This document shows, one piece after another, positions 1 to 26,093 of a stretch of 27,325 nt of DNA (its first letter is position 1; each line of letters starts with the position of its first letter). Position numbers and translations under genes: made by a program. A model generated the notes under the pieces. It saw only the letters and a list, made by a program, of their open reading frames with translations, had not been told where the DNA came from and searched no databases. The stretch is from a candidate division SR1 bacterium (GTDB taxonomy: Bacteria; Patescibacteriota; Gracilibacteria; Absconditabacterales; Absconditicoccaceae). The stretch lies in contig SKIU01000069.1 of the NCBI GenBank assembly GCA_007116275.1, positions 1 through 27,325 of the forward strand. Reading direction: 5' to 3'.

Positions 1-185
1 AGTATCCAAGGGAGTGTGCTTCCTGGACTGATAAGCTGTTCGGCAAGTTTCGTTAATCAACCATTGCTGACATTTTTCCAAAAATTACCCGGTACATGCG
101 TACATGCACTATCAGGGATATCAGCACAAGAACGTTCTTCACCATCATCAGTCACAAATTTATATGCAGCATCGACCACACTCAT
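1..185 (-). CDS. Probable MFS-type transporter, N-terminal part only (runs off the window edge)
   Basis: ATG at 185 gives MSVVDAAYKFVTDDGEERSCADIPDSACTHVPGNFWKNVSNG(TGA=G)LTKLAEQLISPGSTLPWI, with no TAA/TAG to the edge. The C-x-D-I-P-x-x-A-C...P-G-N-F...TK-L...P...L-x-W pattern resembles, from recall, the N-terminus of a group of MFS permeases. Confidence 0.5.
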
Positions 186-216
186 ACAAGCTCTATTAGC
201 GCATAAAAACGAGTAT

Positions 217-702
217 TTACGACAAAAAGGCACTCGTGAGTATCCTCATGATCGCATACGCTGATGCAACGACCACTATTCACTCTATAGCATATCTTAG
301 CGCCTTATTCCCTTCGGCAGCACCATCACCTGACGATGAAAAAATCCCTGTCGCATAGATATACCCAGCGTAGATAATCATCACCGCACCGATAACCAAT
401 GCTATTTGACTCAGAAACCTGACAAGATACACAACATAACCTATCAACGTATCCCAAGTCATAATACCACTCGCAAACTGATCACCAAGATTGTTACCAA
501 GTCCATCAGCCTGTTGATTGTACCTATCTCGTACAGTTCCTTCTCAGGCTCAAACATCTCTTACTGCATCAATAACAGTATCATTATTACTTTGTTCAGG
601 GATGATAAAGAAGTTGTTTGATGTATTTTGGTTTTGTGCATACACTCACGCAGACAAAAATAGTCCAGATATGATGAGTAATGCTAGTTTATATCGTTTC
701 AT
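217..702 (-). CDS. CPR-type pilin-like membrane protein (VirB2/TrbC/T4SS-pilin-like), 161 aa
   Basis: ATG 702 to TAA 217 with TGA=Gly. It has a signal peptide (MKxYKLALLIISGLFLSAGVYA), then a two-helix hydrophobic hairpin LSQIALVIGAVMIIYAGYIYATG...AAEGNKALRYAIEGIVVVASAYAIMRIL. This matches the typical Patescibacteria pilin pattern (IIYAGxxY...G...KxLxxAIxG). Confidence 0.7.
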
Positions 703-729
703 AATCTACTATAAAGAGAGTAAAGAGTA

Positions 730-1572
730 TTACATGCTACATTGCCTTGTTCACTCGACCACAAACCTGTTAACGGTCGTAAATGCAGCAACCATTTCGG
801 CAATAGATGATTGGAGAGTCATAAGTCTATTGTTAGCATAATAATCTACCAAATGCGTGGTCATACTTTTTCCTAGCATTCTATTTGCTTGGAGGTCAAT
901 AATCATCCTCGCATACATAAGTTCATATTGTGTTTTTTCTCTAATAAGTTCTTTACACAATTTTACAGCATTAGGCAGCTCTCTGGCTGCAGGTGTATTT
1001 GATCTGAGATTTTTATAGTATGCATTTGCCGTATCGCAGACCTCGTTATATAATGTATGCAATACTCCATTGTCTATATTCCAATATTGGTTAGTACTCG
1101 TAACAATAGCAGCAGGCATATTTCCATCAGGATTGTTTGCATAGTTTCTCATAAGTTCCCTTCGTTCTTTTCCTTTTTCATGCACGGGGACATCAGGATA
1201 TATAAGATCTTCATTTCCGTCTAGTCTCCTCAGCATGACATCTATGAGATGATCAAAAAGGTAAGTACTTTGGGGGAAGTAGCCATTGGTTGGGATATCT
1301 TTATCCTGATCACAAACAATAATATCATTACCATTGGCATCTACGGTATTTCTCAGATACTTCTGTTCACAACAATATGCTCTCAAATTTTTGGTTACTC
1401 TTTTGATAGCTTCTTCTGGTAACAGATCACTATTGGTACTGATTCCAGAAACCTTGTCATTACGTGAGTTTACCAAAGCACAATCAGCAGTAGCAGCACT
1501 TTGTCAAAAGCTAACCAGTGGCATACTAGCAGTGATGATAACAAGTATAAGCGCATATCCTCGACGATGCAT
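730..1572 (-). CDS. Hypothetical secreted, mostly helical, Cys-containing protein, 280 aa
   Basis: ATG 1572 to TAA 730 with TGA=Gly; this extends track ORF 751..1476 at both ends. N-terminal signal or anchor MHRxGYALILVIITASMPLVSFG; Cys at DCAL, YCCEQ, VCDQ, VCDT, LCKE and the C-terminal QCSM; motif YLFDHLIDVMLRRLDG. Confidence 0.8.
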
Positions 1573-1617
1573 AATAACTACAAACAAGATAAAATAATAT
1601 ATTTACTTAGTTTAGAT

Positions 1618-4600
1618 TTATTGTACCAGTGCCTGTATAGCAACATTAACACTATAGAGATTATCTCCTTGGGTATTTTGTACAATATAAGTAATGTAAT
1701 CTTCATTGAACAATACCTCTGCTTGCAATGATGTATGGTATGGCGTCGGTACATAGATATGTCAATCAGGACTAATGTAGGATATACAGTTGTTATTTTC
1801 TTTCACACACCATCCATTAGCAAAAGTGTCAAACGATGATCACAGTTGTTCCAGCGATATTGTTGGACTTAAAATCTGGATTGGATCCTCACCATACAGC
1901 GATGAAGCAGCATAATATATTTGGAAGATTTGCTGTCAAGCAGTAGCATCAACGACCCTTATCATAGGAACATGCGAAGCAAAATCTACATCAAGTGTAT
2001 ATTGATTGATGAAGTTGTCTTCTATCGTTATTGTTCCATTCATTGGATCAAGGAGTGCAACAGTTTCTCCCGCTGCATTATACAATCATATATCATCAGA
2101 TAGATTAAATATACTTCCAGTAATGACTGTCTGTCAGATACCCAGAGGAAACTGGCTAATCGTATTACCATTTTGTTCTGCTGATAATGTTTCTCGAACG
2201 GTTGTTCTCATACGTTCAAAGCTCACAAATCATTCATCCATATCATTGCTAATACTAGCGACGATACTTCCAGCATTTTCGCCTTCTCTATATGCATTAT
2301 CAATCTCTATAGTTGGAATATCAATACTCACAGTAATGGTTGTCCTATTGAAGTTATCATTGTAATCCATCGCACCGATAGTGATAACCTCTGACATAAT
2401 ACCAGTAAAGAATAACCCATCAATACTAGTGCTAGCACCTGTATACGTATCCAAGATGTTACCTTGGCTATCTTCTATCCAGTTATAAGCCACAGCGACA
2501 TTATCTTCTCGTGTCACATCCAAACGATAATCAGTACTCACATATCATGCATGATCAGTTCCAGTACTTATCACTTCATCAGTTTGCACTCTTACAAACT
2601 CAACGGTTGGGACAGGTCATACAGTATCCGCGAGTAGTTGTGTTCCTACGACGATTTGATTAGACCATGGACTTGCACGTTCATAGATAGAAACACTCTC
2701 GTTCCCTCTATCATACAATGTACTTACTTGTGCATATTTCCAATTCCTCGATAGATTTAATAGCGTGATGCTAATATCTTCTTCATCAGGATTGTAGTAA
2801 AATATATCTACTATCTCATTGCCCATAAGATTTTGTATAACGCCTGGATTGTTATTGTATGGACGCACAAAACGATCAGGATTTTCAATAGTTGTTCACT
2901 CAGGAAGCACTAAGGCATATACTCTATCAATGAGTGCATTACTCATGAAGCTGAGTGGATGGTATTTGTCATGATGTGTATCGACTCTATGATTAAGTTG
3001 GATAAGATATCCATCGACATCATCTCCCATAATATCATTATTGGTCCAAGAAAAGGATATACTATCAAATGACTGTCCTTGCATACGAAAGTTCTTCACT
3101 TCTCGATCTTTATCATAGATCTTTAGTGATATGTTGTTAGTAAATGACAATAATCCTCATTGTGAATTAATAGTAACATATCCATTGGCATCAGTAAGAT
3201 TATCAAGTTCTTCTGGATCGTCAAGGATAGGACTGACATAATACTGTCAGTGATATGTGGTTTTGTCACTGTTAGTCACAGTATTTTGTTCAGCATATTT
3301 GATATAAATACTATTACTATCTCGCATAATAATATCATCATTACCGTCATCATTGATGTCATATATACTGTAGTTATCGCCCACAGCATCGATATGGTCA
3401 TTACTCGTAACTACATTGATATGTTGTCCATTATCTCATATAACTCGTATTCCCTTTGCATATTGTGTTAGATCTGCAGAAGCGGTGTTAGTTACTCAAC
3501 CACAATTAACACAAGTGCTGTTATTGTTGCTGTTATTTGGTGTCTGTGCAATGAGAGGGAGCGCACTACTTGTGGTTTGGTTATATTGCTGAGATGTAGT
3601 TGGATTGCTTACTTGTTGTCATCATTGTTGTGAAACAAGTGCTTGCGATGATTGTCTTGTAGACGAAGCACTGGTCGGCACATTCGTCCTTGTACTGGAT
3701 GTATTGCCAGCTATAAGTGTCTTTCCTTGTTGGATTGTCGTATTAACTTGATCAAAATATTTAGACATATGTTGATGTTCTCTTGGATGCATCCCTAGTG
3801 ATGCTGGAGCACTGTTTGCGAGTGCACCTTGATATCACTGTGCTACTTCTTCCTGCAAATTAAGATAACTCAGGAGTGGATGCTCACTCGTATTGAGAAG
3901 ATCTTTTGTTCTTTTATTCGCACTAAATAGTGCCATACTTCGAGAGTGTTCTTCTTGGTTATTTGACACAAGTATAGTATCTCTTTCTTCTATAGCATCT
4001 AAGAATCCATCATAATCATTCTGTATGTGGTCTTTGATTTCTCTCACCTCTTGTTGTTTAGTATCTATCACAGACTGCACTTCCTGATGTATCTGTTCGA
4101 GCTGTTCTATATGAGCAACGACAGCATGATCCATACGGAGAATATTATCAATTTGTTGTATATCTTGCCTGTGTGTATTGCTAATACTATAATCTTCCAA
4201 AAGCTGCAATCATCCAATCAATTCTCTTTTGACAGTAGTATGAGAAACTTCAGGAATAGTAATATTATCCCAGTTCAGTAAATCATCTGGATTGAGGTTG
4301 ATATCTATATTGATATTATTTTGTATATTATTTATAACGTCAGTCACAGGATTGTTATTTAAGAACTGATTACCATCCTCGATGAGTGTATTGAGATTGT
4401 TGGATGAACCTTCCAATTTTTCAAATGGTTTAGTAACATTCTCACTGACACGTTCAGCCATGTAATTGATCGTATCATAAACACCATTAAAGTTAAACTG
4501 AATATTAACAAAAGTGTCTATTTGATAATCAAATCATTGCATTGGAGGATCTCTAAACATAGTAGTCAAGTCAAGATAGTCAAAAAATGGTACATTCCAT

Positions 4601-7600
4601 GACCTTTGTGTCATCTGTTCAATTTTTGACTTAACCCCATCTTCTGCTACCAATCAAACACCTTTTCCTTTTATAATACACATTATCTGACCAATAAACT
4701 CAGCTGCATTAATTGTCGCACTTATTGATGGCGATATCGCAGGGATCTTTGGTGCAGGAGGAAGGACAGGTAAATCTAATTCGACTTGTGGAAGTAGCGT
4801 TGGTAATGTTGGTAATTGCGGTGGTGGAGGCAGTATAGGAAGATTTGGTATATTAAAAGGACTAAAATCAAGATCCAAGGTTACAGTAGGAGGTCTTGGT
4901 AGGTCAGGGATTCTTGGTAGTGCAATAGATGTAGGAACAAACTTGAAACTTGGCAACAGGATTTGCATACCGATATTGATACGCGACATGTCCAGATAAA
5001 TATTTGGCAACTTAAATGGTGGTATCGGTAATATTGGTAATTGTGGACAGAGGAATGCCAAACTACAAGAATAATAATCATAGATATCATTGCTACAGGT
5101 ACCACAACTTTCTGCCCGATTCACTGAAAGATCAATAAGTGCCTGCCAGGTTCTAATAACGCCAATAAGTGTAATGATGGCGTCTACATACTGAGAAAAC
5201 CTCTTCGCATTAGTCCCAAGCCAGTATGATATTTCACCAAAGAATCTACCAATAAACCCTGATAGTTCAGTAAGATATCTATCAGTAACATGCATCCATT
5301 CATACAATTGTATTGGAAATTGTTGGTACTGTTCGAGTACTTTCAAGTTTTGTTTGATATCTCTCACAAGAAGATGGTAGTTCTCTTCTATATTCAAAAA
5401 TTGTTGGAAACGAGCATTCTGCGTAAATGTATCACATTGTTGCAGTTGATCCAATTCTGCATTTATTTCTTGCATACGACGAGTATCTCCAGCAGCTCTT
5501 GCCTGACTGAGTTCCGTATTGAGTCTTTGTCTCTCACCTCTAATATATGCTCTCGCTGTTTCTACTTCTTCCTCCCAATTTTCATCATTAATAACCCTGT
5601 TACTACAGATACCTAGTGCAGACTTCGTAATGTTTTTCCATTCATCTCGTATACCTCCATTTGCCTCTATCCATGTTTCCAAGTAACTTGCGTATCTAAT
5701 CACATCCTCCGCATAGATAAATGGTATCGGCACAATAACATCTTTGCTCGCAATATTAACCAAATTAACTTGTTCAAACATTTGTCCGACAAGTTCAAAT
5801 GGATTGTTTATTTCTGCAGAGAGATTGGCTAGGTCTCATTGTTGCAAAAGATTGTTCTGAGCTCGGTTGGATATATTATCTAATCAACGAACATCTATTC
5901 ATTCTCAGGCATTCCTATTGATTTCTTCCAAAGATGCTTCCTGTGAAAATATTGCTTCCAATGTAGTAGCGTCAAGTGTATCAAGTCATGCAAAAACTTG
6001 TTCGACATCAGGGAAGTAAATACCGATAGTCATCTGACTCATATTATTAATGATATATTTCACTTGTCTATCCATCCAGTCTTGGATAACACATTTAACT
6101 AATCCCATTGCCATCCCTCCCAGGATTTTAAGGTTTGTTTGCTCTCATGCTCTAAGTGTAATATTTTCAACAAATTCTTCAAAATCAGGCATCTCAGCAT
6201 CGACAAAAACAGGGTCTGCTTGAAAATCAATAAGCCCAAATCCATAGGTATTTTGTGGTATAATAGGAGTAGGCGAAGGAATAAATGGATCTTGTGCCAC
6301 AAGCGTAAATGGAGATGATGCATATTTATTGTCAACATTAAGACCATCAACGATAGTGGTTTCAGTATAAGCGATAGTTGGTTGTGTACAGGTACCTGCC
6401 TGTCCAGCATCTACCCACCACGGATCCAGTTGTTGCGTATAAACTTCATTTGGTCCAACTTCTGGAGCTGATGATCCACACGGTATAGCAAGACTAAGCA
6501 CAATACAATTTCCTCATAGATCTCTTATAGGTTGAGGAAGTCATTGTGTAGCCGATTGTGGTCACAGGCAGATAGCAAATCATAGTTGTGCTGTTAGTGT
6601 TGGTGAAACATACAGTCTAATCATAGAAGGTAATACTCATCCTGGCGCCCAGTAAAATGAGTCCGTTCCTGGTTGTGTAAGTCCATATGGCATAGGAATT
6701 GGAGCTCACATAACATAGGCTGTTCCAGGAAAGAAAAATAATGGCAGTCATTTATCTTGAAATAGCGTACAGCCAAATATATTAAATGTACCTGGTGTGA
6801 GAAATGACATATTAAATGGTACCGGAGGTTGTATACATGGGTCTCCTCATCATAGCTTAAATCATTGACACAATCATTGCAATGCAGTATCAAATGATGC
6901 AGATACATCACTGAGTGTGTCATCAACAAGGGTCATATTAAGATTTGCATTCAGGTCGATAGGATTTCACACACTAATATTATCAAGAATGGACTGATGA
7001 TCTCGTCCTTGATTGAGCATACTATCCACAAAACTACTGTTCATACCATTCCCGACATCACCAACGACATTAGATATATCATCCAGATTATTCCCTAGAT
7101 TATCTTGCATATCTTCATAATAATTAGTAATTTCTTCCCACAAATTTTCAAAAGTCTCGTTGTATGATCTATATGATTGGCTAGTATTCACATCATTGTA
7201 GAAAGTCCACGAAAACTTAGCACAACTATCACCAGGAGTAACTATTATATCAGGATAATTATCAGTAGTTCAATCCCTTTCTTTTTTAGCAACATCGATT
7301 ATCATAGGACTTCCTCATACATATTGTACTACATATGAGAAACTAATAGTATCGCCTGACTGTAGAGAAACATTATCTAAGAGATAGACAAATCCATCAT
7401 TCTCAGTATTCCACACAATCTCTGCATCATCAGGAATGGTTCCATAATCAAAATTTCCCAGTGATCAATCGCTATGCTGCGGTATGATCCATGGTCCACG
7501 GATTTGGTCGGCAAAACTCATAGTAGTATCTTCCGATGCTTTTATATGTACCGTAATCAATACATCTTCACCTTCCAATAACATTCATCCATTAAGATCT

Positions 7601-10600
7601 TCATATGTTTTATAGACGCGAACCGGATCATCACTACTCAAATATCACAATGATATATATGCTATTTCATCATTGGTAAGTGTCTCGTAACTTGGTATGA
7701 TGCTAAATGGATTTGGCGTATGACGGAGAAGTTGTTCTCATCCAGCTTGTATAAGCGCATCGATATCAAGGTTTCCCATCGCATTCAGGGGTCATTGTGA
7801 TTGCATAAGTGCGGACATATTTGCCTGAAAAGTATCGGTATCTATAGATTCATTTTCATACAAATTTGCTAATGCCTGCATAGCAGCATCAGTATCATTT
7901 CATCACAATTCAGATACGTGGTCACCAAGAGGATTACTGAGATCATCTTCTGGCGGCATGGCAAGTCCGTCTCGATGTACAAGACTAGCATCGAGTATAT
8001 GTATCTCTGGATCAAGTTCGACACCATATTGTTTGACTAATACAACATTATCTTCCTGTCTATCTTTCCATCAGTCATCACAAGTATATGCTAATTCTGA
8101 GACATAATTTGATCATCCATTGGTCATTCAACCATAAAATATTTTTACTGCTCATTCCTTATCATGTGTGATGATGTCTACAGTACCATCCAGATCCATA
8201 TCTTCTACGAATAACTGTGATACTCCATCCAAACTATCAGGTCATCATGCAACATCAAGACAAACCATACGTCCGTCTACATCAAATATTCACTCATTAT
8301 TGTGATATACTCTCAACTGATTGGTATTAGTTTGTATGATAATGTCATTGTAATTATTATTATTTACATCACCGACAAATATATCTTTAATAGTATCGGC
8401 AATCAACAAGAGGTTTTGTGTATCTTTATAAGGATCGGTTCATCCATAGTTTTTCAATAGTTTTATACTTCCATCAGTATGTGCAATAAGAATGTCGTCT
8501 AACTCATCATTATTAAAATCAAACGGAATGACCTTGAATATCGTTTTTCAAGGATTATTATAAATATTGGTCCCCATACTCGTATCAAATGCTGTATTAG
8601 CAGCTTTTTTATTCAAATCAATTCTTGTAACCAGAGGGTCTCCGATATTGATAGCAAATAGAGAAGCAAATCATTTTGTTGCATCTCCAATATGTTGTCA
8701 TGCTGCAAAATTATTAATATTTTTAAATGATCCCCTAAACCCGATAGTCAGATTTTCATTATTGCTATCTTCGATAGAGTTATAACTATTGTCTTTTGTA
8801 AAGAATCCGAATTTTTTGGTCAATGCGATTCCTTGTTCGCCGTTGGTAGATCATTCAGCAAAAATAATATGCATGCTTATAGTATCTATGTTGTTGATAT
8901 GTGTACGACTTGCAGCTTGGTTAAGAAGTGTTTGATCTGTTCTCTGTATCACCATACGTCATACAAGTGTATTATTATATTGTACATTCCACACAGGATA
9001 TCATTGATGTTGTTCGCTAGATAACGTTATAGCTACAGCCGCATCTAGTGTATCTACATCAAATACAGCGGTATTGTTTATTTGTATCGCAGATCATTGG
9101 ACACTATTACTTGTGATGAAACTATCGGTATTTTCAGGGATATAGGTAATAGTGTTCCCTTGTATATTTCAAGGGGTGAAATTAGTGATATTATTTATCT
9201 GCTGTAAACTAAAGTCACCTGCATCACCTATGTGAATATTTGCCAGATCACTAACTGCTATAGATAACCCATTGGATGTATTACTCAGTAGTGATACACT
9301 ATTATTATCAAGGTTCTTTATTTTTAGACTTGGAGTGACAATAAAGGAAACTTCTTTGATTTTGTCTGGATTGATAAGCTGCGTTGTTGTAGTAAGGAGT
9401 TTATCAGAGTTTTGTATACGATCATTGATATATGATGCATCTATATCAGAAAAATATCACCGTTGGTTTCATCGATCATTCCCAAACATATTCAGGTACA
9501 TAACATTGAGATTGTCGCGAGGGACGACATCATGCTGTATCGCAATACGGGCGTAGCCAGGTATATGATCAGAAAGTGCTACGCCGTCAATACGAGCATA
9601 TACATAAGCGATACCTCCTGGCTCATCAGTAGTGATAGTTATTTGCTCAGATCATCCCGTAACAGTGACGACACTACTTTTTTCTCCATTAACTAATAAA
9701 GACCCTATACCTCATACTTCTACATCCACAGCTTCTTGGACAGGATTTCACCAAATATCATACACTACTATATGACGATCGAAACTTTCTCACGGTCCAC
9801 CAAATGCAGGGATATTTTCTATAACAATTCTACTAACATCACCAGGATTAACGGTCACTGGTATCTGGACAGGATCAAGCCCAGGGACAGTAACTGTGAG
9901 GGTATCCTCTCCAGCTTGATATGTCGGCTCTAGATATATAGTTATATTGCCATCTTCTACAAAAAAGCTTGATGCTGGTTTGAGGATGGTTTGCGTTATT
10001 TGATTACCATCGACAGATACAGAACGAGTTTCACTAGTAGATGGTTGGAGTAAATTATTGCTTGATGTAATTTGTATATAGCTACTTAGATCGACACCAT
10101 CCACGTCAGTGAGTGAAAGTGTTATAGATGGTATAACATCAAGATCTATCTGTTCTACACCGTCTGTTGTCGTTGTTTTAACTCCATCAAATGATGCAGG
10201 CAATGTATAATCAATACTTGTATTATCTATGTCTAATACAGGTTCTTTAATACGTATCTCTTTAGCAGCAATAGGACTATTGCTTCCATCTCAAGGTCTG
10301 ACAAAAAGAGTGACTAATGTATCATGCGCAACACTAGTATCTGCAGGAGCGTTATAAAGAAATTGTGCTTTATTGAAATCAGTAAAGGACAGACCAGTAC
10401 TTGTGGTATTCCCATTAAATAATGAACCAGTCGACGAACTAATAATAAATTCATCAAGTCATATTCATAGTTTATTACCGAAGGTATCTTTTCCTGCTAC
10501 AATAACAGGAGCACGATCTCCACGTATAACACTATTTGGCCCTACAATTTCCAATGATGCAATAGATCATGGAAGGATGTTGATTTGCTGTGTTTTGTGG

Positions 10601-13600
10601 ATACATGCTTGTGTGTTTTGGGTGCTACATAGCTTAAATACAACAGTCGTCAATCCAGCCTTGGTAGAGTGAGAATGATTAGTATCTCCTAGTCTAATAG
10701 GAAGTCTTGTATTGTTATCAAAAAAATTCCTACTTAATGATACTGGATTGTCACAAAGATTGTTTGATTCTCCATCGATAATAAGACAATTGTCACCTGT
10801 AGCAGAAACCGTAACTTGTACATTCCCTAGATCTCTTGTAGACACTATTTGCAAATATTTCTCTTGGTCCAGTTCAGGATCTACATACCACGCACTCAGA
10901 TTACTCTTCGTTATCGTATATTGCATGATATCTTGCAAGTTTTGTTGTTGACTTGCAGGAAGGTTTTCTATGACTGTATCATTTGCTTGTTCCAGTTGTA
11001 CTGCAGTCGTTCGTTGCTTCCCATATTCACTCATATCATCTCAGTAGTTTGAGAATTGATTAGCGAACTCATTACCAAATGATCTATAATCAGGTATAGT
11101 GATAGTTAATCAAAACGGTTTTTGTGCAAGTTGTTTTGCCCAACATGCTACTGCTCCTGGCCATTTGACTAATGGTACTGGACTAAGTGGATCATAACCA
11201 CATTCTTGTTGTTCTTCATCTTCATCTGCTCTCATTTGGTCATAACTACTTGATGCGTTTGGTTTTTCTTGCTGAGAAAAATTATTTTGTGATTCTTGTA
11301 TATCTCTTACAAATCAAGGCACAGTACTATTGTCTATAGTGTGTACACCGTCAGAGTTGATAAATGCTACTTCATACCCATTGGCTACATATCATGGATT
11401 GAAAAGAGGAGATTGTTCATTATCTGCAACAAGATACGCATCCATAACATGTGTTATTTTTTGGTTAATATCAATAGTATCATAATGCTGTTGCATCGTA
11501 TCTTCTACAGTATCTTGTGCAAGTTTTTCTTGCCAAGGAAGATTCTGATAATGGAGTAATCTTGCTATTTCGTCTATAGTATTTTCTCCCAATGCATCGA
11601 TAAATATATTTTCATCTATAAGTGTATAGCTACGATTTGGTGTTGCAGTAATATTATGTTGGGCAAGAAAGTCGAATGCATCAGGGTTCGTATTGTAGTA
11701 GTTGGTTCTTGTATCCAATTGTGACTGGAGTAGTTGATTGTACTCTTGTACATAAGACTGCAGATGCTCTTTAATAGATAAGGCAATGGCATCAGGTTCC
11801 ATGAGTGTAAGTATCAAACCACTTTGTACATATACAGGAGTTGCATAAATATTTGGATAGGGGAGCGTAATTGTTTCTCATCACAGTCACACAAACGAAA
11901 TTCTTCTTTCATTATCAATAGGTCTATCTCTTGTAGTAATATTCATATTATTTACTTCATCAGGAATCGGTGATGTATGATGATATATTGTATCGATTGT
12001 CTTAAAAAGCCATCTTCTTGATACAGCACTTCCAACAACAGCAGGAGATCTTGGTCTATCAAGAACAATAATAGCAGGGGTTGCGATTTGGATATCTGAG
12101 GTTGTTAATGCATATGCATTTGCAAAGTTGACCATATTATATGGTGCAGTGTTTTTAGGTCTAAAACCATTGTTGAGTATGTCCATATCAATATCATTGA
12201 TACATCTAGGAAATTCTATGTTCCCTGCTTGATCAGAAGTGAGTATCGCTGATCCAAATTTTTCTATACTAGAAAGAGTATTTATATCAGTGATTTCATT
12301 TGAGACAGCTTTATGTCATGCTATATCATAGATAGGTTCTATTGCATGTTTGAAATAAGGAAATCCATCAGGAACATTCAATATCTGATCGTTACTATTG
12401 ATAGGATTTTCAATCAAGTTAATCGGAGAAGCTCACCCTCGTTTTCTGACAGCAAAATCCAATGGTGTTTCTTTTTGATCTCATTGATAGACAGTATTTC
12501 AACTTACTGGATTAACACAACTATTATTATTGTTCTCAGGGACTCGAGATTTAGCTACACAAATCAATCACAACAAAATACTACTAGAACAGGTTGATTC
12601 TCGTCTTCATTGTATTTTTGTACCACTTCGAAAATCTATCTCTGCACTTGTGTTGCTAAAATTATATCACCTATTCGCTTCTGTTTGTTGTGATAAGATA
12701 TTGAAGGTTCATCCAACTGATTGTGCAATATTAGTATTGAGAGTTAATCAATCGATTGATTCAATATTTTGATATGTTCCACGATATATATGTGTATCAG
12801 CAAGGGAATCTATATTGAGTGATCTTTCACCAAAAAAGAAGAAATCATAATTATCTATCTCATCTCCACACTGTACAAGTCAACATGTTGTTCTTTTGTA
12901 CTGATAGGTTATAGGTATGGGTATACGCATAGCATATTGTTCCTGTGTTATTTTATTATTTAGCGTTTCTTCAAGTGTGTCATTAAAATCTTTGATTGTA
13001 GGAGTAATGCCTTCTGCTATATCACGAAACATAATATCATCTTTTGTGCTAACCTTTTTTATATGAGTGTCTATTTGGTTATCACTTATCCATCTTCATC
13101 CGGCAAATATATTGTCTCTCATTGTCTCGCTATAGATATCCCCAAAAAGCGTACTATATCATCTGAGAAATTCAGGGATAATATTATCTAAGAGGGTAGT
13201 AAACGTAGGCGTGTCACTTGCATTCGTAAGAGTACTACTATTGTTAGAAAATAAATCGTTCATTGTATCTCCATACGCCATAAGTGCATTATTATATGCT
13301 AGGACATTGTCATCACTATATTCTGCCTCTGTGTCCAAAGCGCTGGTCATATCATTGACGAGTTTTGATCATAATCAAGCGATGTCTTGATTGCGATTTC
13401 ATTGGAGTATATTGAGAAAAAAGGTCGAAAACCTTCTATATGCTGTATCCTCAGCAAACAGATGTTTGTTCGTATAGTATTGTACATTACCATCTACAAA
13501 ATATTTTTTGAGTGCAGTAAAGTCATCATACCATATCTTAGCATCGACAAATCATCCTGGATTGTCTGCATAGTTGCTGAGTTTGTCAAAATAGTCATTG

Positions 13601-14133
13601 TATGCAGTGATCTCATCTTTAAAGTTAATAATCCCATGCCAAATATCTGCTTGCGCATCAGGATTTACGTTATATTCAAAAAACTCAGTGCTAGCATTAT
13701 ATATGTACTGCTGTTCTTCAAAATCCACATACGGATAAATGCTTGGAAATATGAAATTTTCATGATTGACCACAGGAAGAGGGATATCTCATATAAGAAT
13801 AGTTCCCACAAGTTTGCTTGTCTCTCATTTGATACCATCAAAATAGATATTTTCCAGTATTTTTACTATATCTTTAGCTTTAAATGTATCAGTATTAATC
13901 GGAAAAACGGTTGCTTTACTATTGGATACACGTTGTTGGATATAATTACGGGTGTACCATTGTATATCACTTTCTATATCATCATATATATTTTTATCAA
14001 CAAAAACTGCCACAATATTGGTGCTTTCTAATGTGGTTTCAGCTCTCGTCCCAATAACAAAATTGTGTATGATATATGAGAACAAATAGACAAAACAAAC
14101 GAGAATGACAGATATTTTTTTGGTCAGTTGCAT
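1618..14133 (-). CDS. Giant secreted/surface protein, 4171 aa (FG-GAP/VCBS-like Ca-binding loops, Ig-like domains, Pro-rich and Cys-rich regions)
   Basis: I read this frame from ATG 14133 to TAA 1618, translating the gaps by hand and using the track ORFs in between; the only interruptions are TGA. At least 14 track fragments (13825, 13552, 13159, 11887, 11392, 10567, 9790, 6967, 6145, 4654, 4210, 3835, 2896, 2617, 2230) lie in this one frame. It has a hydrophobic N-terminus MQLTKKISVILVCFVYLFSYII and DxN/DxDG loops at about 8520, 8370, 8200 and 3360. Confidence 0.9.
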
Positions 14134-14366
14134 ACAATAACCACTCAAACAAGTAAATATTTCCCTAAACTATATGAAAAACTACGAAAAATCACAACAA
14201 AGTCCATACCATTATCAGATATTCTATCTATCTTATACTATATAGTATGTATGGTAGTTGACATAATGAGAAAATTGTTTTAGTTGTTTGTGTTGATTTA
14301 CTATAGCGATAAATATAAAATTCCCTTGCATTCTTTATCAAAATCCATAAAAACTGTTCCAACACA

Positions 14367-14488
14367 CCAAAGACAGCAGGTTATTCCGATTCTTTTGGAA
14401 TAATAAATCCCGCCGAGGTTCGCATACATTATTGTATTTTGCTTAACTCTTTTTGTCTTGTGTGTATGAAAAAGAGTTTTTTTGTTTT
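14367..14488 (+). promoter_or_regulatory. Ribosomal protein L10 leader (rplJ attenuator)
   Basis: CCAAAGACAGCAGG (14367-14380), inner hairpin TTATTCC/GGAATAA (14381-14403) and TCCCGCCGAGG (14408-14418) match the AGACAGYAGG...CCYGCCGAGG core of L10 leaders. It lies directly upstream of rplJ. Confidence 0.75.
14445..14488 (+). terminator. Intrinsic terminator of the L10 leader
   Basis: Perfect 10-bp inverted repeat AACTCTTTTT (14445-14454) / AAAAAGAGTT (14469-14478) followed by TTTTTGTTTT. A competing helix CATACA (14423-14428) / TGTATG (14463-14468) could act as antiterminator. Confidence 0.65.
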
Positions 14489-14511
14489 ATTTCACTACTG
14501 TTCTCAAAACT

Positions 14512-16432: not shown

Positions 16433-16867
16433 ATGGTAGAAACAAACATGGCATCACAATCATCCCAAATATCTATGTCATATATCGCATGAAGTGCAGA
16501 AAAAAAGAAGTGTGTTATGATGTATCTATGATTGGGAATCGTGTTGAGTGTATCTCGCGATACAATGTCTGTATTTGAATATTTTCATCTAAGACAGTCA
16601 CTCGGGCGACGAATGGTGTTTATGATAGTTGTTTTATTGTCGATTGTATTGATGTTTTTGCCACTAATTTGGTTTGTTTGATGGTTAGCTATCGTTGCTA
16701 TGTTAGCGGTAGGCTGATTCTTTGGAAAGCAAGCGTGGGATGGCCAATACTACGATAAAGTTGAAAATGCAACACTTCCTCTATTTGTAGGTATGTGATG
16801 ATGGATACTGCAGATGTTTGATATACAGATTAAGATAGAATGACAGGAAGATACTGAAATAAAATAA
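16433..16867 (+). CDS. Small membrane protein (DUF4870-like), 144 aa
   Basis: Absent from the ORF track because of six TGAs. MVETNMASQ...KKCVMMYLGLGIVLSV...FEYFHLRQSLG[CGA][CGA]MVFMIVVLLSIVLMFLPLIWFVGWLAIVAMLAVGG. About 3 hydrophobic segments; FHxRQ resembles the DUF4870 FHxxQ motif (from recall). Confidence 0.65.
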
Positions 16868-17728: not shown

Positions 17729-18295
17729 ATGAAAAAGTATGAGTTAGTATTGATGGTTAATCCATCACTAAAGGAAGATGATCGTGAATCATTACTCAAA
17801 GATATTACATGAGTGTTTGGTAAAAATATCTTGGATACTGATGTTATTGGTTTGCAAGAATTGGTCTATGATCTCTCAGATAAAAAGTGAAACAATAGAG
17901 CATATTTTGTTTCATATCATATACAAGCAGATGCTGAGATGTTAGCAAAGATCAAAAAAGATCTTTTGTATAACAAAGATGTATTGAGATATTTTGTCTT
18001 AGCTATGTCAGACACGCAACCATTTCATCACTTTGAAAAGTTACACAAAGAGCTTGGAAAAGTGATTGAATCATGGGAAGATACTAAATTTTGACAGAAG
18101 TTGACGTTCTTCGCTGATGATAGAAATGTATGATATATATCACGAAAGTCTTTGCCAATGTTGCAGAAATATGTAACAAGATTTGGTAATATTAAACCAC
18201 GTAAATACACAAATAATCCAGTGCAAATACAGAAAAAATTAAGAAGTGTTATCTTGAGAGCGAGAGAAATGGGACTTATTCATTATACAAGATAG
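17729..18295 (+). CDS. rpsF-rpsR: Fused 30S ribosomal proteins S6-S18, 188 aa
   Basis: N-terminal half MKKYELVLMVNPSL...GLQELVYDL...RAYFVSY...NKDVLRYFVL is S6. C-terminal half YISxKSLPMLQKYVTRFGNIKPRKYT...QKKLRSVILRAREMGLIHY is S18. No TAA/TAG between them. Confidence 0.87.

Positions 18296-22289: not shown

Positions 22290-26093
<3,804 letters not shown>

Follow-up and report, generated by a model that had tools for sequence, protein, structure and literature searches.

The locus

The window analysed here is a stretch of DNA of 27,325 nucleotides, the entire contig SKIU01000069.1 (C1) of a genome (GCA_007116275.1; 742 kb, 118 contigs, 73% complete) that originates from a soda lake metagenome. 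The organism is an uncultured member of the Absconditabacterales/SR1, and the database orthologues of one of the proteins considered here, of 161 amino acids (aa), carry the labels Candidatus Absconditabacterales or candidate division SR1. Most of the first half of the window is occupied by three minus-strand genes for a giant protein, a 280-aa secreted protein and the 161-aa pilin-like protein. These belong to a set of six conserved genes for exported proteins that are recurrently linked in pairs, with the 280-aa protein at the center of the linkage; the genes and export signals, the folds of the domains, the conserved linkage and the adhesin-type modules of the giant protein were all established by the analyses described below. 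The three genes of the window are as follows:

1618..14133, minus strand: gene of the giant protein, 4171 aa from the ATG at 14133 (4176 aa from the TTG at 14148), with full-length collinear homologues
730..1572, minus strand: gene of the 280-aa secreted protein (P0002 family), with a signal peptide and six conserved cysteines
217..702, minus strand: gene of the 161-aa T4SS_pilin/VirB2-like protein, with a signal peptide, a conserved N-terminal part of ~60 aa and two hydrophobic helices

When the region is read with the standard code (table 11) it falls into fragments, and no open reading frame (ORF) longer than 375 aa exists anywhere in 217-14133. Table 25 (TGA=Gly) yields instead, on the minus strand, a single ORF at 14148..1618 containing 97 in-frame TGA=Gly codons and 18 CGA/CGG=Trp codons, followed by ORFs at 1587/1572..730 (285/280 aa) and 702..217 (161 aa), with spacers of 45 nt (1573-1617) between the giant and 280-aa genes and 27 nt (703-729) between the 280-aa and 161-aa genes. 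The chance of 4,176 stop-free codons was calculated as approximately e^-219, given that TAA/TAG make up ~5% of random codons at 36% GC, and full-length homologues of the giant protein are known down to 26% identity. An earlier note on this DNA had described three co-oriented, closely spaced genes, the first of them shattered by the standard code and each product with an N-terminal signal or anchor segment, and the ORFs and a Kyte-Doolittle scan bore this out in full. Its recoding with TGA as Gly and CGA/CGG as Trp was upheld as well, the reassignment of CGA/CGG to Trp having been published previously for Absconditabacteria (PMC8629427): codon 104 of rpoC (CGA, 22599-22601) is aligned with the Trp that is conserved in the HIW(F/Y) motif of the matched solved beta' subunits, and codon 3011 of the giant gene (CGG, 5116-5118) occupies an alignment column in which standard-code homologues have W, Y or F. 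The giant protein was analysed as this recoded sequence, and the database copies of the 280-aa and pilin-like proteins, in which TGA is read as Trp, are wrong at 2 and 4 glycines, respectively. Window positions 16607-16612 are a further site of CGA/CGG acting as Trp codons, and code-25 readings of homologues show an "R" at positions where this genome has a TGG-encoded W, at TWDT of the pilin-like protein and at KTWQ of the core of the giant.

The giant protein and its family

A word-indexed search produced 22 full-length collinear homologues of the giant protein, 3,800-5,400 aa in length and 98-26% identical to it, and more distant proteins of ~5,000 aa have its N-terminus, FG-GAP region, Gly/Pro/Cys block and core in common with it. 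With the profile of the core (residues ~2840-3270), matches were obtained to 562 clusters at 50% identity, of which 348 fall below 1e-30; nearly all of the core-bearing clusters are proteins of 3,500-6,000 aa. In whole-genome searches the core turned up in 22 of the 24 sampled genera of the family and in 12 of 16 other families of the class, with one matching locus in most of the genomes searched; as the genes of those 12 families have no in-frame TGA, the standard code is evidently used there. The giant family is collinear from end to end and conserved across the GTDB class Gracilibacteria. A sequence search of the PDB gave nothing, and Pfam and NCBIfam gave a sub-threshold FG-GAP match alone. 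The parts that could be delineated within the gene are these:

14047..14133, minus strand: N-terminal signal peptide or signal anchor (residues 5-34, Kyte-Doolittle), with comparable N-termini in homologues
13549..14022, minus strand: gingipain/peptidase C25-like alpha/beta domain (residues ~38-195), with invariant prolines, a near-invariant E..HG motif and no conserved Cys
7924..8766, minus strand: FG-GAP-like repeat region (residues ~1790-2070; PF13517), a conservation peak
6454..6921, minus strand: conserved Gly/Pro/Cys-rich block (residues ~2405-2560) with invariant cysteines, for which the model, of low to moderate confidence, is rich in beta structure
5104..5751, minus strand: long helical bundle (residues ~2795-3010), the confidently modelled part of the core (AlphaFold2 (AF2) predicted local distance difference test (pLDDT) 80-95)
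4339..5106, minus strand: family signature, defined by alignment, of a CxxC, a beta-hairpin, a ~100-residue proline run and a helix that carries an invariant Cys and the K..K.EQ.TQR motif

The segment at residues 5-34 is the sole strongly hydrophobic one in the protein. Behind it, the AF2 model of the N-domain (residues 30-430) has a mean pLDDT of 82.7, rising to 90-97 over the first 160 residues, and matches gingipain R (RgpB) with a Foldseek probability of 1.0 (VIA Z 8.2, root-mean-square deviation 2.5 over 130 residues), PorU (VIA Z 7.8) and gingipain K (Kgp; VIA Z 7.7), as well as more than 10 AFDB "Gingipain domain" clusters (E 7e-8 to 1e-4). In the 61 N-domains that were aligned the His-Gly is near-invariant and no Cys is conserved; PF01364 (Peptidase C25) has no match in the giant protein at E<=1, and the Atlas feature similarity is weak (0.76-0.79). 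An active C25 protease was considered and rejected, as there is no conserved Cys for the catalytic His-Cys dyad. In the absence of both a conserved Cys and a PF01364 match the N-domain is probably not a protease, and it is probably a non-catalytic C25-like module.

The FG-GAP region scores 24 bits against PF13517 in the window giant, below the cut-off of 26.9, and the collinear homologues P0016 and P0035 reach 32.7 and 42.5 at the aligned position; the region is probably a beta-propeller with Asp-rich loops. Distant homologues additionally carry Ig-like Big_1/Invasin_D3, DUF11 and SLH domains, with no SLH domain being detected in the window giant or in the close relatives scanned. The idea of a giant adhesin, given as an example in the earlier note, is supported as far as adhesin-type modules go: these are present here and in relatives, the FG-GAP match of this particular protein staying below the cut-off. 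The C-terminus has neither an LPXTG motif nor a hydrophobic tail, no second transmembrane segment was found in the protein, RTX gave no match, and adjacent ATP-binding cassette/membrane fusion protein (ABC/MFP) genes were not found, the neighbours being ribosomal genes.

In the signature, more than 10 prolines are invariant over ~100 residues, the CxxC and the helix Cys are invariant, and the K..K.EQ.TQR motif is conserved. The best structural match to the core, a weak one, was AFDB A0A2H0RWY8 (1028 aa, uncharacterised), which aligned to model residues 402-855 with probability 0.77 and E 0.027, and this protein may be a stand-alone version of the core.

A proposed secreted partner and a six-gene cluster

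The 280-aa protein is a near-constant companion of the giant, its gene coming after the giant gene in nearly every case. It has a single N-terminal hydrophobic segment by Kyte-Doolittle, and 14 orthologues have the signal peptide and six cysteines in common, including a CC pair and one Cys located 3 residues from the C-terminus. No Pfam or NCBIfam match was obtained, an Atlas feature search was without a usable match, and the relatives present in a large protein database are all unnamed. In the profile search exactly one copy was found in 131 of 141 family genomes, and in 77 of the 79 high-quality genomes. Same-strand placement of its gene 3' of the giant gene was seen in 15 or more of the genera sampled and also at three metagenome loci (30-39% identity).

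Adjacency of the 280-aa and pilin-like genes was scored by comparing the coordinates of their profile matches across 39 genera. The pilin-like gene is found 3' of the 280-aa gene in 11 of these, comprising ~82 genomes with no exception within any of the 11: the window's own genus, g42 (29/29), g23 (16/16), g12 (10/10), g51 (9/9), g57 (8/8), g58 (4/4), g45 (2/2), g10, g53 and g52. The spacers are short, ~40-90 nt where estimated. In two genomes (G009 and G011) the 280-aa and pilin-like genes are together and the giant gene is on a separate contig, and as the pair is intact there without the giant, it is the small partner that links the other two genes. In G090 (C19:3212-4193) and G137 (C23:34133-35086) a tandem duplicate of the pilin-like gene is found directly 3' of the 280-aa gene.

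The neighbourhood holds three further secreted proteins, A, B and C, of ~450, 400 and 600-800 aa. In the complete genome of SR1 bacterium RAAC1_SR1_1 (G142), in G055 and at two further loci (L001 and L003), the giant, 280-aa and pilin-like genes converge on A, B and C, and in another complete genome (G013) the giant gene, 280-aa gene, A, B and C follow in order on one strand. All six products have an N-terminal hydrophobic segment and conserved cysteines. The unit of three genes assumed in the earlier note was consequently too small, A, B and C also being members. In the genome of the window itself A-B-C lie on a second contig, C85, ending 10 bases from the contig end, a position that fits a join to window position 1; synteny is what suggests this join, there being no sequence overlap between the contig ends. 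Directly upstream of A-B-C on C85 (L020 4969-5970, minus strand) is the gene of a 333-aa membrane-anchored protein with weak zinc-metallopeptidase-type matches (Peptidase_Mx E 1.7e-4, ATLF E 3.9e-4).

The pilin-like protein

The 161-aa protein has hydrophobic segments at residues 4-22, 85-121 and 137-161, which are conserved in the orthologue alignment and give a VirB2-like topology. Its match to T4SS_pilin (PF18895) scores 22.2 bits against a cut-off of 26.6 (E 1.5e-4), and TrbC (PF04956) is likewise below threshold; of 11 orthologues, 9 gave a PF18895 match at E<=0.01, the best having 1.2e-6, and most database orthologues have a precomputed PF18895. One orthologue is present in 134 of 141 family genomes. 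The genome of the window has its own locus of T4SS (type IV secretion system) type on contig C80 (L029 3030-7485, minus strand), separate from the pilin-like gene, with a 708-aa VirB4-like ATPase (P-loop_TraG, AAA_10, DUF87), a membrane protein of 320 aa and a protein of 439 aa in which two T4SS_pilin domains exceed the Pfam cut-off (39.5 bits). In three other genomes the distance from the pilin-like orthologue to the VirB4-like match is 22 kb (G013), 34 kb (G014) and 300 kb (G021). The identification of the 161-aa protein as a VirB2/TrbC-like pilin in the earlier note can be kept as far as the two-helix topology and the PF18895 matches of the orthologues go; its own score is sub-threshold and its gene is outside the VirB4 locus of the genome.

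In the same three genomes the pilin-like gene is separated from the 280-aa gene and adjoins efp, or is one gene off. Canonical type IV prepilin genes occur within a few kb of this efp-side gene on the same strand, at L024 6167-6730 in G014 and at L021 1925-3112 in G013.

A link to type IV pilus genes in standard-code relatives

One gene order is common to three loci that come from two divergent lineages of standard-code relatives: rplJ, rplL, two unknown genes (one of them PilO-like in outline), T2SSE, T2SSF, 1-2 prepilins, the giant gene and four small secreted proteins. In reference genome G036, T2SSF and the giant core are on one strand, with T2SSF ~11 kb upstream, and in 8 of the 9 standard-code genomes compared T2SSF does not adjoin the giant gene. 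The type IV pilus-like operon in which the giant gene of some of these relatives sits is of another pilus kind than the VirB2/TrbC of the earlier note. T2SSE, T2SSF and prepilin genes are not in the window; in the 5 family genomes in which T2SSE was looked up it is remote from the giant gene, and the T2SSF matches in 24 sampled family genomes are all away from it.

By hhalign, protein C resembles d537, one of the four small downstream proteins of the standard-code relatives (69%, E 4.5e-5), and B resembles d208 weakly (43%); for the 280-aa protein no convincing relation emerged, whether to A, B and C or to the four small ones. Each of those four has a Cys within its last 1-5 residues (L032 22178-25975, L030 21466-25245), and a Cys so placed also occurs in the 280-aa protein and protein A of the window's family; the near-terminal Cys could be a shared disulfide-capping feature.

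Flanks of the three genes

The remaining features are those at the two ends of the three genes:

14169..14341, minus strand: promoter-like hexamer pairs upstream of the giant gene, consensus matches only, in a spacer shared with the divergent L10 leader
1..216, no strand: contig-end sequence past the pilin-like gene, which the convergent A-B-C genes would be expected to follow, from synteny in relatives

No promoter-like or terminator-like site was found on the minus strand of window positions 1-1800. On its other side the giant gene is neighboured by ribosomal and RNA polymerase genes, including rplJ-rplL. The Rfam L10_leader (RF00557, 54.7 bits) matches at 14349-14492 (plus strand) upstream of rplJ, so the L10 gene probably starts after 14492 and not at the TTG at 14458. 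Further along, at 17729-18295 (plus strand), one 188-aa ORF has an S6-like start and an S18-like end, an apparent S6-S18 fusion.

Likenesses to known systems

The giant hypothetical membrane proteins of Absconditabacteria are already known (PMC8080830), as are the VirB2-like pilins of CPR (candidate phyla radiation) bacteria (10.1101/2025.01.22.634366). Vampirococcus, a cultured relative, has a fibrous surface, and its largest protein, VAMP_16_20 (4163 aa), is annotated as a "hypothetical protein"; the authors of the Vampirococcus lugosii study proposed that giant membrane proteins act in the fibrous surface and in host attachment (PMC8080830). The V. lugosii giants are from the same order, are of near-equal length and have a predicted membrane or surface location, and that paper gives no family, core motif, partner genes or synteny. 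The searched literature gave no account of the family definition, the structurally unmatched core, the fixed partner, the six-gene cluster or a pilus-operon ancestry.

In Omnitrophota, a different phylum, a gene for a very long secreted multi-domain protein directly follows gspE/gspF-type genes and genes of small class III signal proteins (10.1101/2023.11.21.568195). This is the order seen in the standard-code relatives, to which it is likened by gene order, whereas type IV pilus (T4P)-type genes are not adjacent in the window's family. With the VirB2-like pilins of Patescibacteria (PF18895/PF04956; 10.1101/2025.01.22.634366) the 161-aa protein has in common the signal peptide, the two hydrophobic helices and PF18895 across its orthologues; unlike them, it is not encoded near virB4, is single and not arrayed, has an extra conserved N-terminal part of 60 residues, and has the genes of a secreted Cys protein and of a giant protein linked to its own. 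The peptidase C25 proteins RgpB, Kgp and PorU, the last a sortase of the type IX secretion system (T9SS), share the alpha/beta fold of the giant's N-terminal 160 residues, but the giant lacks their conserved cysteine, a PF01364 match and a T9SS context. SiiE and LapA are giant adhesins secreted by type I systems, and the likeness to them is one of size class and presumed adhesive role; the giant differs in its N-terminal Sec signal and in lacking both an array of RTX or BIg repeats and ABC/MFP export genes beside it.

A cell-surface assembly and its alternatives

In the reading that we propose, the three window genes would form one arm of a cluster, conserved in the Absconditabacterales (SR1), of six genes whose products are extracellular. 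The giant protein would exit via Sec and then be either tethered by its N-terminal hydrophobic segment or released, and would display the non-catalytic gingipain-like domain, the FG-GAP region, beta-rich stretches that are probably Ig-like, judging from the distant homologues, and the family-specific core with its helical bundle, CxxC and rigid proline run. The 280-aa protein would accompany it as a fixed partner stabilised by disulfides outside the cell, A, B and C would be additional secreted subunits, and the 161-aa VirB2-like protein a small membrane-embedded or polymerising subunit, whose gene would, in part of the order, have come to lie beside that of the partner. Together these would make up a cell-surface assembly, the most likely use of which would be contact with a host or prey cell. 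To the idea that the six products form one such assembly, with the physical association and surface exposure that this entails, we give an even chance, and to the idea that it serves host contact a lesser one. The most far-reaching version is tentative: an undescribed family of envelope proteins of 4,000-6,000 residues, with an unmatched core fold and spread across the class Gracilibacteria, might build, with four small Cys-containing secreted proteins and a VirB2-like subunit, a fibrous host-contact organelle of predatory or episymbiotic Absconditabacteria, and might descend from an ancestor linked to type IV filaments.

Several observations weigh against such an assembly. In 28 of the 39 genera (~46 genomes) separate contigs, or distances of tens to hundreds of kb, divide the 280-aa gene from the pilin-like gene, and with its gene so distant from the cluster the pilin-like protein may work independently. 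The three-gene synteny that the earlier note asked about holds for its two halves, giant/280-aa gene in at least 15 genera and 280-aa/pilin-like gene in 11, and fails for the trio in those 28. The model of the core (residues 2375-3265) is weak outside the helical bundle, with a mean pLDDT of 61, and is without a credible structural match in the PDB, the Atlas or the AFDB clusters. The near-universal presence of all six genes in the family means that their co-occurrence cannot discriminate between the readings, and near-universal, mostly single-locus genes beside ribosomal genes fit a housekeeping envelope role equally well as host attachment.

That last thought is the basis of an alternative in which the giant, together with its small partners, is a structural part of the envelope, for example a scaffold that is S-layer-like or associated with the wall and serves cell integrity rather than host recognition. 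The strong conservation of the core across the class and the SLH domains of distant members agree with this, as do the near-universal distribution, mostly at a single locus, and the location beside ribosomal and RNA polymerase genes. However, adhesins are the more typical carriers of FG-GAP, Ig-like and DUF11 domains, SLH went undetected in the window giant and the close relatives scanned, and S-layer proteins are usually far below the giant protein in size; we hold a scaffold to be unlikely. Rather unlikely, too, is that the giant is a client or a tip or accessory protein of a type IV pilus-like machine, with the adjacency of the VirB2-like gene a later rearrangement without functional meaning. 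It draws on the T2SSE, T2SSF and prepilin genes 5' of the giant gene in standard-code relatives, including the T2SSF of G036, on the rplJ-rplL neighbourhood that is kept in the window, on the resemblance of d537 to protein C, and on the Omnitrophota giant genes, which are likewise preceded by type II secretion system (T2SS)/T4P-like loci (10.1101/2023.11.21.568195). Against it are the remoteness of T2SSE and T2SSF from the giant gene in the family genomes, the 8 of 9 standard-code genomes in which T2SSF is not beside it, and the N-terminus of the giant, an ordinary Sec-type signal with no prepilin leader.

The 161-aa protein has an alternative of its own, possible though doubtful, as a VirB2-type pilin of a chromosomal CPR T4SS that works with VirB4, its place after the 280-aa gene being neutral. 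The PF18895 matches of its orthologues and the VirB4-like ATPase on C80 are in keeping with this, and Gracilibacteria T4SS genes have been reported as scattered (10.1101/2025.01.22.634366), as the pilin-like gene is in the 28 genera where it stands apart. Yet the VirB4 locus has a pilin-domain protein of its own, that of 439 aa, and the adjacency to the 280-aa gene, with its short spacers, occurs in every genome of 11 genera and is kept where the giant gene has moved off.

Significance

On how CPR bacteria with genomes of ~1 Mb hold and exploit their hosts, the Absconditabacteria had so far contributed just the name "giant hypothetical membrane proteins". The locus described here provides a defined target, i.e., a near-universal giant with mapped domains, usually at one locus per genome, together with a fixed small partner, four further conserved neighbour genes and an evolutionary link to pilus machinery, and the two cultured predators, Vampirococcus and Absconditicoccus, make the genes directly testable. 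If the proposed assembly were a housekeeping scaffold of the envelope, it would still account for ~1% of a minimal genome; if it proved to be a contact organelle, it would represent a bacterial cell-cell interface of a new type.

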